Origin: Gemmatimonas sp. UBA7669
GTDB taxonomy: Bacteria > Gemmatimonadota > Gemmatimonadetes > Gemmatimonadales > Gemmatimonadaceae
NCBI RefSeq assembly: GCF_002483225.1
Contig: NZ_DLHL01000001.1
Span: 63,325-127,324, forward strand
DNA: 64,000 bases
Reading direction: 5' to 3'
Position numbers and translations under genes: made by a program. How positions within the stretch are numbered: the stretch's first letter is position 1; every line of letters starts with the position of its first letter. Under the pieces are notes generated by a model. The model made no database searches, was not told the origin of the DNA, and worked only from the letters and a program-made list of their open reading frames with translations. Of this stretch, positions 1-6,974 are shown piece after piece.

Positions 1-2
1 AC

Positions 3-1109
3 GCCGGCGGCCACCACGACCAGCAGGCTCCCGAGCCATCCGCCTGCGCCGATCACGTGCAGCGTGTCCGCCACGACCGCCAGGCCGGCGCGCCCCGGAG
101 TGGCCGCAGCGTGTCCGGAGAGTGCGGGGGTCACCGCCAGGACGACCACGCCGAACGCCGCGAGCCCCCACCCCCCTTGCCCGCGAATCGCCGTGCGGAA
201 GCCGACGATCGCCACGACCGTGGCGAGCACCTGCAACAGCCAGCCGCGTCCCCACACGGTGTCGGTGAGCATCGCACGCACGAGCTGCGGATCGAACGTC
301 GCATCCGGAGGATGCATCGCCACCGACTGCGCGCCGAGCCGCAGGAGCGCAGCTCCGCCGACGATCAGCGCGCCGAGCAGGCCGATGCGCGCGGCACCAT
401 GCCTGGAAGCGACGAGCATCGGAGCGTCTGGACCGCGCTTGCGGATCAGGAGGGGAAGCACCGCCGCCTGGAACGCGACGGCGCCGATGGCCATGAGCAG
501 GCCGAGATACAACAGTGCCCGGATGGCGGCGTACGCCGGCGACTCGGCGTCGAACGAACTGGCCGATGGCATCGACGCCTGGTCATGGTGCATCGCGGAG
601 TCGGCGGCGCCGGGTGCAGCCGGCGTCGGCGTTTGCGTCGGCGTTTGCGTCGGCGTTTGCGTCGGCGTTTGCGTCGGCGTTTGCGGCTCGCCGGACGCGG
701 GCGTCCCGGGCGGCGGTGCCGCCGGCGCCCCTTCGGCGACCGTGAACGCGTACTGCCCTCGCACCGGATGGCCATCGTCGCCCGCGATCTGCCACGTCAC
801 GGTGTAGGTGCCCGCAGCCAGTGGTGCCTCGATGCTCGCGACCAGCGCGCGCCGCGAGTCCGCGGCGACACGCAGCGGGGACAGCGCGACGGCCGCACCG
901 CCCGGCCCCCGCAACTCGAGTCGGCTGAAGGCCAGCGCCGGTGCCTCGGTGAAGGTCAACCGGATTTCTCGCGGCACGACGGTGAGTCGCTCGTTCGCGG
1001 CGGGCGCGGAGCTCTTGAGCGAACCGTGCGCCAGCGCGCGCTCGACTGGCGCAAGGAGCAGGACCGACAGCAACGCGAATCGGGAGACACGGCTCACGCC
1101 GTGTGGCAC
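3..1109 (-). CDS. copCD: CopC-CopD fusion copper resistance protein (3' partial, runs off window start)
   Basis: Absent from the ORF track because it has no stop in the window. Manual translation from GTG 1109 (GGAG RBS): signal peptide, A|HGSLKSSAP...GTYTVTWQIAGDDGHPVRG (CopC with both His ligands), QTPT linker, then membrane domain with LSGHAAA...DTLHVIGAGGWLGSL (CopD motif). Confidence 0.9.
   Translation of the reverse strand, partial: MPHGVSRVSRFALLSVLLLAPVERALAHGSLKSSAPAANERLTVVPREIRLTFTEAPALAFSRLELRGPGGAAVALSPLRVAADSRRALVASIEAPLAAGTYTVTWQIAGDDGHPVRGQYAFTVAEGAPAAPPPGTPASGEPQTPTQTPTQTPTQTPTQTPTPAAPGAADSAMHHDQASMPSASSFDAESPAYAAIRALLYLGLLMAIGAVAFQAAVLPLLIRKRGPDAPMLVASRHGAARIGLLGALIVGGAALLRLGAQSVAMHPPDATFDPQLVRAMLTDTVWGRGWLLQVLATVVAIVGFRTAIRGQGGWGLAAFGVVVLAVTPALSGHAAATPGRAGLAVVADTLHVIGAGGWLGSLLVVVAAG
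628..684. repeat. 12-bp tandem repeat (GGCGTTTGCGTC x4.75) encoding the QTPT linker of CopCD
   Basis: Read directly from the sequence; the copies are exact. Confidence 0.95.
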
Positions 1110-1159
1110 GTGTCGGCTCCGCGACCCTGACGTGCCAGGGATGACGTCTCGTGTGCGCA

Positions 1160-2209
1160 TCAGGCGGGCGGCTTCCGCATGCCGGGCATCTTGCTGTGAT
1201 CCATGCCGGGCATGGCAGGAGCGGGCTTGGCTGCGGGCTTGGCTGCGGGCTTCGCTGCCTGCTTCGCTGCCGGCTTGGCTGCAGGTCTTGATGCGGGCTT
1301 GGCCGCGGGTTTGCGGGCCGGCGTCGAGGAGGTCACTGCACCCGCCTCGCCCTTGTCCGCAGGCGATGGCGCCGTCATTCCCTGCATGCTCATGTCCATG
1401 CCCGTCATCCCGGGCATGCCGGCCATCATGCGCTGCAGGACGGGATCGGTCATCACGCGCTCGCGGATCACCGGGTCGGCCATCATGCGCATGTGGATCG
1501 CCATGAGCGTGGTGTCGCTCATCATCGACATGTTCATGCCCGACATGTTCATGCCCGACATGTTCATGCCCGACATGTTCATGCCCGACATGTTCATGCC
1601 GGCCGCGGTGCCTGTTGCTGCGCCGGTCGGCGTCGTCATCGTGGAGTGATCCATCGTCGAGTGATCCATCTTCGAATGGTCCACCGGCGCCGGCCGGCTG
1701 CCGTTCGGCGACGAGGTGAGCACCGTGTCGGTCCGCGGTGGAATCGCGCCGGTGCCCAGGGCGCCGCACGCGAGTGTCGTGGCCGCCGCGCCGGCCGACG
1801 TGCCCTGCACGACGACGTGGTACGAGCCTCCGCTCGTGAGCGGCGCATCGAGCGTCGCGCTCGCGCTGCCCGTGCCGGTCGCGTTCACGGTGATCGGTGC
1901 GAACGCACTGGCGGCGCCCGCGACGCCCTCGTCACGCGCACACGAGCCGCGACGCACCGACCACGTGCGGACCGCGCCGCCCTGATCGCCCGTCCACGCG
2001 ATGCGCACGGTCGTGCCCGCGACGGTCGCCGTGCCGGACGCCGTGCGCGAGCCCAGCGGATCGGTGAGAAGCGCCGACAGCGTGCCGTTGTTCGCCGGCG
2101 CGGACATTCCCGCGTGGCCGGCATGGTCGCCAGCCGTGGACTGCGCCTGTAGCGCGCCGCTTCCCATGACCAGCAGGGCGGCGACGGAACCGATTGAAAG
2201 CGGTCGCAT
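1160..2209 (-). CDS. Secreted Met/His-rich putative copper-binding protein with N-terminal SOD/CHRD-like beta domain
   Basis: ATG 2209 (GGAGG upstream); signal peptide MRPLSIGSVAALLVMGSGALQA; WSVRRGSC...YHVVV...LACGAL domain; DHSKMDHSTMDHSTM, (GMNMS)x5 and KPAA repeats; ends MPGMDHSKMPGM. Lies inside the copA-copB-X-copCD operon. Confidence 0.8.
   Translation of the reverse strand: MRPLSIGSVAALLVMGSGALQAQSTAGDHAGHAGMSAPANNGTLSALLTDPLGSRTASGTATVAGTTVRIAWTGDQGGAVRTWSVRRGSCARDEGVAGAASAFAPITVNATGTGSASATLDAPLTSGGSYHVVVQGTSAGAAATTLACGALGTGAIPPRTDTVLTSSPNGSRPAPVDHSKMDHSTMDHSTMTTPTGAATGTAAGMNMSGMNMSGMNMSGMNMSGMNMSMMSDTTLMAIHMRMMADPVIRERVMTDPVLQRMMAGMPGMTGMDMSMQGMTAPSPADKGEAGAVTSSTPARKPAAKPASRPAAKPAAKQAAKPAAKPAAKPAPAMPGMDHSKMPGMRKPPA
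1527..1600. repeat. 15-bp tandem repeat (GACATGTTCATGCCC x5) encoding GMNMS
   Basis: Read directly from the sequence. Confidence 0.95.
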
Positions 2210-2269
2210 CGGAGGTGCCTCCGTGAGTGATGCAGGGCCAACTGGCCCGATCGAGTGAATGAGTTCGAT

Positions 2270-2329
2270 GATGCGCGTCGCGATGCGCGTCGGGATGCTC
2301 GTCGCGATGCGCGTCGGGATGCTCATCGC
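2270..2329. repeat. 12-bp imperfect tandem repeat (GATGCGCGTCGS x5) covering the copB stop and downstream intergenic DNA
   Basis: Copies start at 2270, 2282, 2294, 2306 and 2318. Confidence 0.85.
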
Positions 2330-3147
2330 CAGATCCGCAGGCCGGCGGTGATGGTGCCGACGCTGCGCCGTTCGCCGAGGCCGTGCGCCATGGCCGCGGT
2401 CGCGCCGGTGCGCCGCAGCATCGACACGCCGACGTACGGCGCGAACTTTCGCCGGATCTCGTAGCGCATCCGCGCGCCGATCTCGACGTCGTTGAGACCC
2501 GAGCCAACGCCGATCTCCGGCACGGCCTGCACCGCCGCGTTGACCTCGATCCACGGTTGCACGATGAGCCGCTGCGTGAAGAGGAGGTCGAACGACGACT
2601 CGACCTCGAGCGAGACGTCGCCCTTGTCGCTGACGAGCAGCGTGGGCTCCACCTCGAACCAGCCCGGCGCCAGGCCGATGAAGCCGATCGCGAGCATGCC
2701 GCGCGTGAGGCGACCACCGGGCTCGCGCCGCCCGGTCGATGGATCACCGAAGTCGACCGGCGCGATGACCGTGCGCGGTCGCGTGTCGACGCGTCCGCCG
2801 GCGACGAACGACCAGAACGGCGTGATGAGCCGTCCGTAGAGCGCATCGCCCTGCATCTCTCCGCCACCGGACATCAGCGTCGACTGCTCTCCCTGCACGC
2901 GCAGATACAGGCGGCGATAGTCGCCGCCGATCCAGCTCACCAGCTCCACGTCGATCGGGCGCTCGGGCTGGTTGGCGTGGACTTCCAGCTGTTCGGCGAG
3001 GATGAACGTGCGGATGACGCGATCGAGGTCCATCCCATGTGCGGCGCCACCGGCCTGCGCGTGGACGCGTGCCGGCTGCACGAGCAGGAGCGCGGCGATC
3101 ACGAGACTCGAGCACATGACGCGCGCGCGATGCGTGACGACGCTCAT
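2323..3147 (-). CDS. copB: Copper resistance outer-membrane protein B
   Basis: ATG 3147 overlaps the copA stop (ATGA). WIGGDYRRLYL, LYGRLITPFW, GLAPGWFEVE, DLLFTQRLIVQP, GARMRYEIRRKFAPYVGV and the terminal GLRIW are typical of CopB. Confidence 0.92.
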   Translation of the reverse strand: MSVVTHRARVMCSSLVIAALLLVQPARVHAQAGGAAHGMDLDRVIRTFILAEQLEVHANQPERPIDVELVSWIGGDYRRLYLRVQGEQSTLMSGGGEMQGDALYGRLITPFWSFVAGGRVDTRPRTVIAPVDFGDPSTGRREPGGRLTRGMLAIGFIGLAPGWFEVEPTLLVSDKGDVSLEVESSFDLLFTQRLIVQPWIEVNAAVQAVPEIGVGSGLNDVEIGARMRYEIRRKFAPYVGVSMLRRTGATAAMAHGLGERRSVGTITAGLRIWR

Positions 3148-5165
3148 GATCTCGCCTCCCCCTCGGTGGTCATCGGCCCGCCGGGCTCCGACACGTGGAA
3201 CACGCGGAACATGCCGACATCCATGTGGAAGAGCACGTGACAGTGAAAGGCCCACGGTCCCGGATCCACCGGCGTCGCCAGCAGCGACACGCGCTCGGCA
3301 GGCTTCACGTTGATGGTGTGCACGTATGGGCACTCGGGCCCATGCCCGTTCTCGAGCTCCATGAACACGCCGTGCAGGTGCATCGGGTGCGCCATCATCG
3401 TGTCGTTCACGATGGTGAGGCGAATGCGCTCGCCGTGCTTGAGCGGGATCGGGTCGCGCGCATCGGAGAACTTGATGCCGTTGATCGACCACATGTAGCG
3501 CTCCATGTTGCCGGTCAGGTGCAGCTCGATCTCCCGCACAGGGGGCTCGAAGGTTTCGGCCGGCGTGAGCCGCTTCACGTCCGTCCAGACGAGCACGCGC
3601 CAACCATCTTCCCCGAGTCCGGCGCCAGGCTCCGAGAGCCGGCTCCGGGTTTCCATGGCCGTTCCGGCGCTTGCCGACCCGTGCGTGTTGTTGCCGTGCA
3701 TGACTGGCTCGGGAATCGTGCCGGGCGCCCGGAGGTTCGAGGCTCGAATGATGGTGCCGTCTCGCAACTGTCCCTCGAACACACCGGCGCCTCCGGATGC
3801 CGTCACGCCAGGCATGCTGCTCATGTCATGGCCCGCGTGACCTGATGCCGCTGCTGCCGCTGGCTTGGTCGCAGCCGCGGGCATGTCCATGCCCGGCATG
3901 CTCGCATCGGCGCCGGGCTTCGACGCCGTCCCCGTGCCCGACATGTCCATCCCAGGCATCGACATTCCCTCGTGCCCGCCCATCCCCATCGCCATGCCCA
4001 TGTCCACCATGTTGAGCGTGGGACGCGGCCGGCGGCGCGGGATCTCGGCGCTCATGCCGGCGCGCGGCGCGAGCGTGCCGCGTGCGTATCCCGAGCGATC
4101 CATCGACTCCGCGAAGATCGTGTACGCGCGATCCTCGGTGGGCTTCACGATCACATCGAATGTCTGCGCGATCTCGATGCGGAACTCGTCGAACGCGACG
4201 GGCTGCACGTGCTGGCCGCTCGCCTGCACGAGCGTCATCTCGAGGCCGGGAATGCGCACGTCGAAGTACGAACCCGCACCTGCATTGATGAAGCGCAACC
4301 GAACGCGCTCGCCTGCGCGGAACAGTCCGGTCCAGTTGGCCGCCGGCGGCAGACCGTTCAAGAGATACGTGTACGTCGAGCCCGTGACATCGGAAATGTC
4401 CGTGGGGGTCATGCGCATCTTGCCCCACTCCCAGCGGTCCGCGATGGTGGCCCGCAGCCCGTTCCGGTCGACGTCCCGGAAGAAGTCGCCGACGGTGCGG
4501 CGCTGGAAGTTGTAGTACGCCGACTGCTTCTTCAGGTTGTCGAGGATCTTGCCGGGGTCCTCGAAGGACCAGTCCGACAGCATGACCACATACTCGCGGT
4601 CGTACTGGAACGGCTCGGGTTCGGACGGGTCGATGATGAGCGGTCCGTAGTGGCCCAGCTGCTCCTGAAAGCCGGAGTGGCTGTGGTACCAGTAGGTGCC
4701 GTACTGCCGCAGCGGGAAGTCGTAGACGAACGTCTGCCCCGGATGGATGCCCGGGAAATTCACGCCCGGCACGCCATCCATGGCGTTCGGCACCAGCAGT
4801 CCATGCCAGTGAATGGAGGTGTCCTCACGCAACCGGTTCGTGACGTGAATCGTGGCACGCTCCCCTTCACGGAAGCGGAGCAACGGTCCAGGCACCGACC
4901 CGTTGATGGTCGTCGCCACGCTGCGCCGCCCGCCGAAGCCGAACGGCGTGCGATCAATGATGAGATCCACACGCGTGTCCCGACCGGAGACACCGGCCAA
5001 GGCGGCGCGGCCAGCGCCACGGTCGCTGGCAGGCAGCGCGTAGGCGGGCGCGAGGCGCTGCAAACCCGCCAGCGCGCCAACGGCGCCCGCCGCGTGCAGG
5101 AAACGGCGGCGTGTCACCGGGTGGGTAACGACGCCATCCGTGAAAGAGCGTTCCAAGTCGTTCAT
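3144..5165 (-). CDS. copA: CopA-family multicopper oxidase (Tat-exported) with Met-rich insert
   Basis: TRRRFL Tat signal; IHWHG, YWYHSH, HPMHLHG and HCHVLFHMDVGM copper-ligand motifs; MGMAMGMGGHEGMSMPGMDM insert. Confidence 0.97.
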   Translation of the reverse strand: MNDLERSFTDGVVTHPVTRRRFLHAAGAVGALAGLQRLAPAYALPASDRGAGRAALAGVSGRDTRVDLIIDRTPFGFGGRRSVATTINGSVPGPLLRFREGERATIHVTNRLREDTSIHWHGLLVPNAMDGVPGVNFPGIHPGQTFVYDFPLRQYGTYWYHSHSGFQEQLGHYGPLIIDPSEPEPFQYDREYVVMLSDWSFEDPGKILDNLKKQSAYYNFQRRTVGDFFRDVDRNGLRATIADRWEWGKMRMTPTDISDVTGSTYTYLLNGLPPAANWTGLFRAGERVRLRFINAGAGSYFDVRIPGLEMTLVQASGQHVQPVAFDEFRIEIAQTFDVIVKPTEDRAYTIFAESMDRSGYARGTLAPRAGMSAEIPRRRPRPTLNMVDMGMAMGMGGHEGMSMPGMDMSGTGTASKPGADASMPGMDMPAAATKPAAAAASGHAGHDMSSMPGVTASGGAGVFEGQLRDGTIIRASNLRAPGTIPEPVMHGNNTHGSASAGTAMETRSRLSEPGAGLGEDGWRVLVWTDVKRLTPAETFEPPVREIELHLTGNMERYMWSINGIKFSDARDPIPLKHGERIRLTIVNDTMMAHPMHLHGVFMELENGHGPECPYVHTINVKPAERVSLLATPVDPGPWAFHCHVLFHMDVGMFRVFHVSEPGGPMTTEGEARS

Positions 5166-5234
5166 GGTACCAGGAATCGAGTTCGGGGGACACGTCGAGA
5201 AGTGCCGTCAGTCAGGACCTCTCGTCGGTCACGC

Positions 5235-5249
5235 TTTACCACGCATAAA
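5235..5249. promoter_or_regulatory. Putative BlaI-family operator 1 (TTTAC-CACGC-ATAAA), upstream of copA
   Basis: One mismatch to the TTTAC-N5-GTAAA palindrome found four more times; 70 bp upstream of the copA ATG. Confidence 0.75.
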
Positions 5250-5292
5250 ATATGCGCGCAGGTACGCTGCTCTCGCTACGGTGCGCAACGCT

Positions 5293-5321
5293 TTGACATA
5301 CCCCGCCGGCCAGCATAGCTT
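5293..5321 (+). promoter_or_regulatory. Sigma70-type promoter for copC (TTGACA-N17-TAGCTT)
   Basis: Perfect -35 at 5293-5298, 17-bp spacer, -10 at 5316-5321. Confidence 0.8.
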
Positions 5322-5329
5322 CCGGATGC

Positions 5330-5344
5330 TTTACCGCGCGTAAA
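5330..5344. promoter_or_regulatory. Putative BlaI-family operator 2 (TTTAC-CGCGC-GTAAA)
   Basis: Perfect palindromic arms just downstream of the predicted copC transcription start. Confidence 0.85.
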
Positions 5345-5405
5345 ATGCCGCGGTCACGAGGCCAGCGATGCTCCATGGCCTCCCCACGCCCTCCCGAGAT
5401 TGCCA

Positions 5406-5855
5406 ATGCCCTCATCCACGTCAGCAGCAGATACGCCTGTCGTCACCACCGTCCCCAGCCGCCGTCGCGCCGCGGTGCGCCTGCTGGCCGGGGTTACCGC
5501 CGGGCTGCTCCTCGCGCTGCCGATGACCAACGTTGGTGCCGTTCGTCACATCCGCCTCGTCAGCTCCAGCCCGGCCAAGGACGCCCACGTGATGGCGCCC
5601 TTGCGCGAGATTCGCCTGACGTTCAGCGGCAAGATCGCGGTCTCCACCGCGAGCGTGCAGCTGCTGGCCGCCGATAGCACGCGGGTGAAGGTCGGCGCGC
5701 TCACGGCCGTGCCGGATTCTGAGCGCGTCGCCGTGGCAAAGGTCTCGGAGCCGCTGAAGAACGGGACCTACACCGTGCAGTGGAAGGCCATCGCCGCGGA
5801 CGGCGCGGCGGGGTCCGGGTCGTACAGCTTCATGTACATGGCCGCGAAGAAGTAA
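5406..5855 (+). CDS. copC: CopC-family periplasmic copper-binding protein (atypical, DGH motif replaced by DGA)
   Basis: Signal peptide, then HIRLVSSSPAKD...IRLTFSGKI...GTYTVQWKAIAADG; divergent from copA. Confidence 0.85.
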   Translation: MPSSTSAADTPVVTTVPSRRRAAVRLLAGVTAGLLLALPMTNVGAVRHIRLVSSSPAKDAHVMAPLREIRLTFSGKIAVSTASVQLLAADSTRVKVGALTAVPDSERVAVAKVSEPLKNGTYTVQWKAIAADGAAGSGSYSFMYMAAKK

Positions 5856-5894
5856 CGTACGGCCGGCACGCGGCGGGAGCGCAGGATGGCTTTG

Positions 5895-6974
5895 CTACCG
5901 CCGCGTGCCGGGCGCCACGTCATGCGGGCAGGGCGCCCCTGGGGTGCGTGGATGCCCCGCGAGGCAGAACAGATGCTCCACGGCCCAGCCTTGATGCTGC
6001 GTGCAGTGGCCCGCATGGGGCGCCCCGTGTTCACTAGACGCCGGAAGGGGGTGGGCGACGGCGAGGCCCGAGCTCCATACCAGCAGGAGCCCCGCGAATG
6101 CCGCCGCGAGTGACCGCCGTGTCACGTGCGTGACCACCGGCGCCTCCTCGCCCACCAGGCGATGGATGCGTCGGTCGAGCAGCGCATCACGCTGGATGCC
6201 GATGACGACGCCCGATCCGCTCGACAGCACGCGCCCGCCCAACTCGGGATCCTGACCGGGGACCCGCCACGCTGCCAGCTTCAGGATCGCGGAGGCCAGC
6301 ACCAGCGGCTGCCCCCGCACTGCCCTGTCGTCCGCCGCGATCTCGGCGTCGTCTGCCGCATCGGCCGCGAGGCGCCGCAATGCGGGCAGCCAGAACAACG
6401 CGCAGCCGACGAATCGCAGCACCGAGAGTCGGGCGGGATCGCGCCGACGTACATGTGCGTGCTCATGCGCGAGCACCGCGGTCAGCTCCTCATCGGAGAG
6501 CGCCTCAGGGAGACGGGACGCGACGTAAATGTGCGGCCGCACCCACCCAACCGTGAACGCGGGATTCGGCAGACCGTCGACGACGCGCAGCAACGTCGGC
6601 GGCACCCCGGCCGCCGCCGCCGCCGTCCAGAACGCATCGCGGTCTCGTGGTCGCACGGCCTCGACGGTGCCGAGCAACCGCCGAACGACCAGCCACGCTC
6701 GGCCGCGATCCCACACCGCATAGGTGAGCCCGGCGATCAGCAGTCCGTGAAACACCTCATGGACTGGCGCGAGCAGCTGATGCACTGCGATGACGCAGAT
6801 CACCCAGACATGATCACGCCCTGCCAGCAACTGATCGAGGCGGGACCCAACATGATGCGCCAGCACCGGACTCGTAGCGAGCAGAATGAGGACGCCCGTC
6901 GCGAAGAGGACGAGTCGGCGATGGCGGCCCTCATGCGCGCCGGTGGCTTGGGCGGGACTGTCGCGGTGTGGCAT
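5895..6974 (-). CDS. BlaR1-like M56 family membrane metallopeptidase with His/Cys-rich extramembrane segments
   Basis: PAFTVGWVRPHIYV, ELTAVLAHEHAHVRRRDP (HExxH), EIAADDRA and LDRRIHRL are M56 signatures; AGGAGG RBS; directly downstream of the BlaI-family gene. Confidence 0.9.
   Translation of the reverse strand: MPHRDSPAQATGAHEGRHRRLVLFATGVLILLATSPVLAHHVGSRLDQLLAGRDHVWVICVIAVHQLLAPVHEVFHGLLIAGLTYAVWDRGRAWLVVRRLLGTVEAVRPRDRDAFWTAAAAAGVPPTLLRVVDGLPNPAFTVGWVRPHIYVASRLPEALSDEELTAVLAHEHAHVRRRDPARLSVLRFVGCALFWLPALRRLAADAADDAEIAADDRAVRGQPLVLASAILKLAAWRVPGQDPELGGRVLSSGSGVVIGIQRDALLDRRIHRLVGEEAPVVTHVTRRSLAAAFAGLLLVWSSGLAVAHPLPASSEHGAPHAGHCTQHQGWAVEHLFCLAGHPRTPGAPCPHDVAPGTRR

Follow-up and report, generated by a model that had tools for sequence, protein, structure and literature searches.

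A Met-rich protein with a degenerate superoxide dismutase-like barrel in a Gemmatimonas cop operon: a candidate for Cu(I) capture and hand-off

Background

What is the role of a Met-rich protein of no recognised family that is encoded among the copA, copB and copCD genes of a copper operon? The question is raised by Gemmatimonas sp. UBA7669, where a gene called X here occupies positions 1160-2209 of the minus strand in the 64,000-nt stretch of DNA that was analysed (the window, to which all positions refer unless another locus is named). An earlier note on this DNA had read its product as a candidate periplasmic copper sponge. Our analysis makes it highly probable that X is a copper-handling periplasmic protein. 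By a modest balance of the evidence, we favour a role in which it captures Cu(I) in the periplasm and hands it off to a specific partner, rather than one of bulk storage. Copper handling in Gemmatimonadota is essentially unstudied, and no paper that treats Gemmatimonas, copper resistance and multicopper oxidase together turned up in a literature search.

Composition of X and its place in the operon

The gene lies between copB and copCD in the same-strand order copA, copB, X, copCD. It is co-oriented with its three neighbours and the gene order is conserved (see below), as expected of a component of a copABCD operon and in agreement with the earlier assignment of X to the cop operon. G+C content at codon positions 1, 2 and 3 is 0.60, 0.63 and 0.86. 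Since this third-position pattern fits a window of 66.8% G+C, X is a real coding frame. Searches of Pfam and NCBIfam with the whole protein gave no match at E<=1, so that its description as uncharacterised stands.

Every sequence feature previously listed for X was found again: a signal peptide, a DHAGHAGM motif, a beta domain with two Cys, three DHSxM motifs, five GMNMS repeats, a Met-rich helical stretch (LMAIHMRMMADPVIRERVMTDPVLQRMMAGMPGMTGMDMSM), KPAA repeats and the C-terminal end, which reads MPGMDHSKMPGMRKPPA and has MPGMDHSKMPGM as its core. The metal-ligand residues are distributed very unevenly. Mature X contains 10.1% Met (33 in total), 32 of which fall in the C-terminal 174 residues (18.4% Met) together with five His, while the beta domain has none. 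The protein carries 26 motifs of the MxM, MxxM, HxxM or MxxH forms, and its Met/His motifs are, as had been claimed, of the type known from CopA, CopB, PcoE and SilE. The main Met/His tract runs from the three DHSxM motifs (DHSKMDHSTMDHSTM) through a Thr/Gly/Ala spacer to (GMNMS)5. The 15-bp DNA repeat encoding the latter shows 100% matches and no indels (score 150, Tandem Repeats Finder). The Lys/Pro/Ala (KPAA) spacer is also encoded by a tandem array, a 12-bp repeat of 7.8 copies at 1221-1313, and its length varies from 20 to 73 amino acids (aa) in the family.

In the AlphaFold2 (AF2) model, confidence, expressed as the predicted local distance difference test (pLDDT), is highest in the barrel. 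Residues 41-150 form eight strands (block means 80-95; barrel pLDDT 85-95), followed by helices at 229-244, 246-254 and 256-263 (pLDDT 66-77). The remainder has pLDDT <50; residues 158-230 and 270-328 are predicted to be disordered, and residues 7-14, in the signal-peptide region, form a short helix of low pLDDT. From its sequence, X appears to be a Sec-exported periplasmic protein. Given its operon position, likely export signal and density of soft-metal motifs, X is best read as having a role in Cu(I) binding in the periplasm, and such binding is likely.

A variable tract beside nearly invariant segments

Conservation within the family does not follow metal-binding capacity. Over 16 aligned proteins, mean identity to X is 85% in the helices that follow the main Met/His tract (the DP helices, see below), 77% in the end peptide, 62% in the barrel and 32% in the tract. 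The N-terminal His/Met tail is also poorly conserved (24% identity), and similar tails occur on stand-alone relatives of the barrel. The nine end-peptide residues G335, M336, D337, H338, S339, M341, P342, K346 and P347 are invariant, and synonymous differences outnumber non-synonymous ones in the DP motif. Judged from these comparisons, it is the helix motif and the end peptide that selection preserves, not bulk Met content.

Tuning of the tract by repeats, which the earlier note proposed, is supported across species, since over evolutionary time the tract gains and loses short repeats. In 14 copies of X the stretch between barrel and helices measures 36-85 aa and holds 2-15 Met and 1-5 His, and the aligned length of the tract is 22-54 aa in the 16 proteins. 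Different lineages build it from different units (DHSxM, GMNMS, TAMPG or GGAMAGMDHSKMDM). The (GMNMS)5 expansion makes the copy in the window the longest and richest; its homologues hold 0-2 GMNMS units. In this family a low-complexity capacity part evolves freely by gain and loss of repeats beside a helix motif and an end peptide that are nearly invariant.

These data bear directly on the proposal that X is a bulk periplasmic Cu(I) sponge, which would substitute in trans for the missing Met-rich N-terminus of CopB and whose capacity would be tuned by repeat number. CopB does lack a long Met-rich N-terminus, as the proposal states, its mature sequence before the barrel domain being short (QAGGAAHGMDLDR...). 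However, CopB is equally short at the related locus L020, where the genes shown include none called as X-family. Although this is one locus, substitution in trans is thereby left with no specific support, and CopA of the operon under study already has a Met-rich insert of its own. The 32 Met of the C-terminal half and an exact 15-bp repeat in five copies, placed in a tract of widely varying length and Met count, are what a sponge would require, and SilE and PcoE offer periplasmic precedents (PMC5008109). Yet this capacity tract is the least conserved part of X, one family member has little of it, and the strongest selection acts on a helix motif and an end peptide that a sponge could dispense with. 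The sponge proposal is thus supported in part; as an account of X it is rather unlikely.

The helix motif as a reused module

The most conserved part of X, RMMADPVIRERVxTDPVLQRMM, recurs outside the family. A search with the 45-residue DP segment retrieved 77 proteins of two kinds, the X family and a second family of 500-600 aa, and the motif is almost letter-perfect in 93 proteins of these two architectures. The N-terminal domain of the second family is unrelated to X and uncharacterised, with no Pfam or PDB match; it spans ~340 aa and is helical, with many conserved His (FDYGHAILYE, EWAHLxHRQ, FDNLHxMHDV). One branch of this family (P0167 in L015, together with members in L032 and L035-L039) also shares a K/P/A-rich spacer and an end peptide, DSMPGMDHSKMPGM(R/K)KP. 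Its gene in L015 lies directly upstream of copCD. In L020 and L021, which belong to the branch without the end peptide, the second-family genes are clustered with a BlaI/BlaR1-like pair and copCD. The Gemmatimonas genome studied here has a second-family gene of its own ~44 kb before the window. The copper cluster of the second family in L020 also includes a gene for the copper storage protein Csp (PF03860; 13901-14311) and a DUF305/DUF4142 gene. Reuse of the helix motif and end peptide on a second protein points to a specific, mappable interaction.

With a profile of the motif, the best match in the PDB was the DP2 domain of yeast Sti1 (2llw; 45 residues, E=0.0022). Many second-family members carry precomputed matches to the STI1/HOP DP family PF17830, which gave 24.6-33 bits on rescanning (cut-off 29.1); the stretch that matches best in P0175 and P0214 seems to be the DP motif shared with X. 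X itself has no match to PF17830 at E<=1, and the X-family member P0207 reaches 13.6 bits. X shares with STI1/Hop DP domains the paired pattern ...M.DP.......DP.[LM]Q..[LM] in short Met-rich helices; it differs in being bacterial, predicted periplasmic and encoded in a copper operon, and the DP profile covered only positions 1-36 of 55. The helical core of X thus resembles a DP domain in sequence, and we do not claim membership in PF17830. By our helical-wheel reckoning M229, M236, H239, M240 and M243 fall on one helix face.

An STI1 domain is a flexible helical hand whose Met-rich groove grips low-helicity hydrophobic segments as well as its own disordered placeholder sequences (PMC13083928). 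A second alternative is a metal-independent periplasmic adaptor or chaperone, in which the Met-lined helices would hold a partner by a segment that is unfolded or rich in Met. The partner would be CopA not yet loaded with copper, CopB not yet inserted into the membrane, or CopCD, and the Met tracts would serve as internal placeholders, as in ubiquilin STI1 domains. The DP resemblance is backed by two routes (PF17830 on relatives and the Sti1 DP2 profile match), the motif is extremely conserved across two architectures, and the affinity of STI1 grooves for such segments is documented (PMC13083928). However, X has no Pfam match at E<=1, the similarity covers only ~30 residues, and so short a DP repeat could be convergent. 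The flanking MDHSxM and MPGM are classic copper-ligand motifs. We also know of no periplasmic STI1-type chaperone. A metal-independent adaptor is an unlikely explanation, although the least unlikely of the alternatives considered here.

A more novel reading would make the DP helices a true prokaryotic, periplasmic STI1/DP-type helical hand, forming with the spacer and the MPGMDHSKMPGM end a portable Gemmatimonadota cassette that couples Cu(I) capture to CopCD, CopA or a copper sensor. Its Met groove may bind Cu(I), or may grip Met-rich segments in a copper-dependent manner. Metal handling in bacteria would then include an ATP-independent module of chaperone type, of which we know no description; we hold this reading to be improbable.

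A superoxide dismutase-like barrel without its ligands

The beta domain had been described as similar to superoxide dismutase (SOD) or CHRD domains and lacking the SOD His ligands, and the structure and profile searches bear this out. They recovered a SOD-like fold and no Pfam model match for the barrel. The top Foldseek matches are Cu,Zn SODs (probability 1.00; query TM-score, TMq, 0.53-0.58). X shares with the Cu,Zn SOD family (PF00080) an eight-stranded Greek-key barrel and a conserved disulfide: its two Cys, C90 and C148, line up with those of the SOD disulfide and do not vary across 63 sequences. It departs from the Cu,Zn SOD/CHRD superfamily in the short length of the domain (~112 aa), in the loss of the ligands and in scoring below the threshold of both Pfam models; with CHRD (PF07452) in particular, X gave no match at the gathering score. 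Among the barrel relatives 12 of 63 match CHRD weakly (best seen P0063, 27.3 bits against a cut-off of 24.1). Crystal structures show CHRD domains to be SOD-like folds without metal ligands (PMC13382577).

An exhaustive search of a representative library with the barrel alone returned 239 proteins, mostly stand-alone, secreted and ~150 aa long, with the signature PWHVHxGxC...VxVHxS...ACGxL. The profile of this family gives sub-threshold matches to SODs, aligned at the copper-ligand HxH and the disulfide ACG. Three His positions of the stand-alone proteins (occupied in 45, 46 and 42 of 62) correspond to S84, R86 and Q135 in X, whose barrel retains a single His. The stand-alone proteins likely carry a three-His site and could be minimal copper-only SOD-like proteins. 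The barrel of X is a disulfide-stabilised SOD-like scaffold whose presumed metal site has been lost.

We considered whether X could still be a divergent copper-only superoxide dismutase, or another redox enzyme, with a Met-rich tail. The fold and the conserved disulfide pair are all that speak for an enzyme of this kind: there is no Pfam Sod_Cu match, the barrel has one His and no Met, and the three His positions of most stand-alone relatives are Ser, Arg and Gln. With the His ligands gone this explanation was rejected as extremely improbable.

Matches to the barrel occur in 70 of 301 Gemmatimonadota genomes and are nearly all barrel-only. Stand-alone SOD/CHRD-like proteins of ~150 aa are encoded in the genome studied here (L003, 1492-2298, minus strand; L004, 1486-1917, minus strand) and in L010 (1435-1965, plus strand). 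Some have Met/His tails and one adjoins copCD. The stand-alone paralogues in this genome adjoin a TonB-dependent receptor or HupE/UreJ gene, a context with no copper link. A word-index search for homologues of the beta domain alone gave nothing; its length window left out full-length relatives, and distant relatives have too few words in common.

Proposed Cu(I) capture and hand-off

Hand-off is favoured over bulk buffering because the helices and end peptide are the most conserved parts of X and are reused as a module, whereas the tract is the least conserved. In the capture and hand-off that we favour, the degenerate barrel, held by its disulfide and devoid of a metal site, would be a stable scaffold. 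The disordered Met/His tracts (DHSxM, GMNMS, MPGM) would capture Cu(I) through thioether and imidazole ligands, in the manner of the CopA/PcoA inserts, the N-termini of CopB/PcoB, PcoE and SilE. The Met-lined three-helix DP motif, the Lys/Pro/Ala spacer and the MPGMDHSKMPGM-(R/K)KP end peptide would then make the specific contact through which Cu(I) is passed on. By analogy with the E. coli Pco system the partner would most likely be the CopA oxidase or the CopCD module.

In the E. coli Pco system the oxidase PcoA is presented with Cu(I) by a PcoC-type Met-rich site. In the copCD fusion studied here, the CopC domain begins, after its signal peptide, with HGSLKSS, in which His is residue 1, and has a GDDGHPV motif and no Met (window 3-1100). 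Since it has no Met, we take it to lack the PcoC-type Met-rich Cu(I) site and, judged from these motifs, probably has the Cu(II) site alone. A CopABCD system in which neither CopC nor CopB bears a Met-rich Cu(I) segment suggests a separate Cu(I)-presenting subunit. The proposed role of X would be the same as that of PcoC/CopC with a Met-rich site, that is to present Cu(I) for oxidation, followed by Cu(II) binding on CopC, although X differs from these proteins in fold.

X can also be compared with the silver and copper sponges SilE and PcoE of the sil and pco systems. Both of these are disordered and fold when their His/Met motifs, which have an i to i+3 spacing, bind Ag(I)/Cu(I) (PMC5008109). 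Predicted-exported X is likewise encoded with copper/silver resistance genes, and it shares with them short Met/His motifs, large disorder (predicted in X) and helix-forming Met/His segments (PMC5008109). However, X has no sequence homology to them (no Pfam, NCBIfam or PDB sequence match) and is over twice their length. It differs further in its folded SOD-like domain, its K/P/A spacer and its invariant end peptide, and what it conserves at its core is a DP-type motif, not a series of MxxH/HxxM repeats. With the Met-rich N-terminus of CopB/PcoB and the inserts of CopA/PcoA (MDHSxMxGM-type), X shares MDHSxM, MPGM, the operon and the compartment, but its motifs are on a separate polypeptide and CopB in these loci lacks the region. 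In Pseudomonas syringae and E. coli the CopB and CopA repeats bind copper. Met-rich periplasmic proteins encoded in copper loci are a kind already well known; what is new in X is the architecture and the DP-like cassette.

Several points weigh against Cu(I) capture and hand-off. X has no homology detectable by Pfam, NCBIfam or PDB sequence searches to proven copper-binding proteins, and in eukaryotes the DP-type motif is a peptide- or client-binding element without a metal site (PMC13083928). Met content in the X family ranges from 4.3% to 10%, and because P0003 is nearly devoid of a Met tract, a large metal capacity is not essential. Signal-peptide cleavage, likely after ALQAQ, was judged by eye. 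The TGA that ends X and the first in-frame ATG of copCD have one A in common, but translational coupling of X and copCD is no more than a hint, contingent on which of three candidate copCD starts is used (ATG at 1160, or GTG at 1109 and 1097, 51 and 63 nt downstream).

Distribution and synteny

Full-length homologues of X number 15 (47-66% identity), from metagenomes and one Gemmatimonas sp. record, and all are annotated as hypothetical or unnamed. A search of one genome per species (185,579 species) found full-length X in nine genomes, all labelled Gemmatimonadota. Within the phylum (301 genomes) it is present in the genome studied here, in two copies, and in one other species only; a third match covers the N-terminal half alone. 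In the collections searched, the full-length family was thus found only in Gemmatimonadota. Matches in Williamsia, Chitinophagaceae-type, Nevskia and other organisms outside the phylum lack the DP motif, share only Met/His/PAAK composition and were rejected as relatives. A PDB sequence search with the family profile returned a low-complexity PAAK match and noise only.

The second copy in this genome, 56% identical, belongs to a further operon of the order copA-copB-X-copCD, which is on a different contig. P0011 was considered as a paralogue inside the window and discarded: the tblastn match there is gene X itself, alone, and the paralogue is the one on the other contig. The order copA-copB-X-copCD is kept in 12 of 14 loci, including copies down to 33% identity, and X and copCD overlap by 4 nt in L007 and L022. 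Both exceptions are metal loci. The neighbours of X in L029 are a DUF4198 gene on one side and a heavy-metal P-type ATPase on the other, and in L031 a DUF4198 gene follows copA-copB-X. X is the fastest-diverging gene at these loci (33-59% identity; CopA, 60-91%). DUF305/DUF4142 genes follow copCD in L006 and L007.

Features of the locus

Table 1. Features of gene X and its product, the surrounding operon and the second-family genes (positions in the window unless a locus is named)
Feature	Positions	Strand	Remarks
Gene X	1160-2209	-	349 aa + stop; open frame free of stops
Shine-Dalgarno sequence of X, GGAGG	2218-2222	-	8 nt 5' of the ATG at 2209; direct reading
Signal peptide of X	2141-2209	-	residues 1-23, MRPLSIGSVAALLVMGSGALQAQ; Sec type, without lipobox Cys or twin Arg
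His/Met N-terminal tail of mature X	2090-2140	-	residues 24-40; DHAGHAGM at 28-35
Beta barrel of X, degenerate Cu,Zn-SOD/CHRD-like	1754-2089	-	residues 41-152; one His, zero Met
Pro-rich linker	1685-1753	-	residues 153-175; pLDDT <50
Variable Met/His tract	1523-1684	-	residues 176-229; 14 Met and 3 His in 54 aa
(GMNMS)5 tandem repeat	1526-1600	-	residues 204-228; 15 bp x 5.0 copies
DP-type helical core	1421-1522	-	residues 230-263, LMAIHMRMMADPVIRERVMTDPVLQRMMA; includes RMMADPVIRERVMTDPVLQRMM
Second Met tract	1376-1420	-	residues 264-278, GMPGMTGMDMSMQGM; 6 Met in 15 aa
Lys/Pro/Ala (KPAA) spacer	1217-1375	-	residues 279-331; without Met or His; predicted disordered
C-terminal peptide of X + stop	1160-1216	-	AMPGMDHSKMPGMRKPPA; conserved
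copA, multicopper oxidase	3144-5165	-	TIGR01480, 778.5 bits; three Cu-oxidase domains; own Met-rich insert
copB, outer-membrane barrel	2323-3147	-	PF05275, 200.9 bits
copC-copD fusion	3-1160	-	PF04234, NF033814, NF033808; continues past window start
Two TTTAC-N5-GTAAA palindromes	5235-5344		copA/copC divergent intergenic region, upstream of copA
Second-family gene, L015	1498-3078	-	
Second-family gene, L020	7001-8815		
Second-family gene, L021	7001-8593		
Second-family gene, own genome	G000:C4:18617-20227		

The palindromes upstream of copA belong to a set of five in the window, where 0.03 would be expected by chance, and the rest of the copper cluster shares such sites. Neither a sigma-70-like promoter nor, inside the operon, a terminator-like site was found in a scan of positions 1-6000. 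This result and the overlapping stops and starts (ATGA for copA and copB, a common A for X and copCD) are what speaks for co-transcription.

The gap between copB and X is 113 nt and contains a 12/24-bp tandem repeat; the 24-bp unit (2.5 copies, 94% matches, 2270-2329) takes in the final codons of copB as well as the copB-X spacer. Folding of the spacer RNA is slightly better than that of shuffled sequences (z = -2.2), to which we attach no meaning. It has no Rfam match, and a miRNA-like Rfam match in positions 1-6000 was dismissed as chance. In copCD an exact 12-bp repeat (5.2 copies, 623-685) encodes a (PTQT)n linker between the CopC and CopD domains, and the CopCD of the L010 relative ends in five MDAT units. 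In-frame microsatellite expansion of linkers seems to be common among these copper genes.

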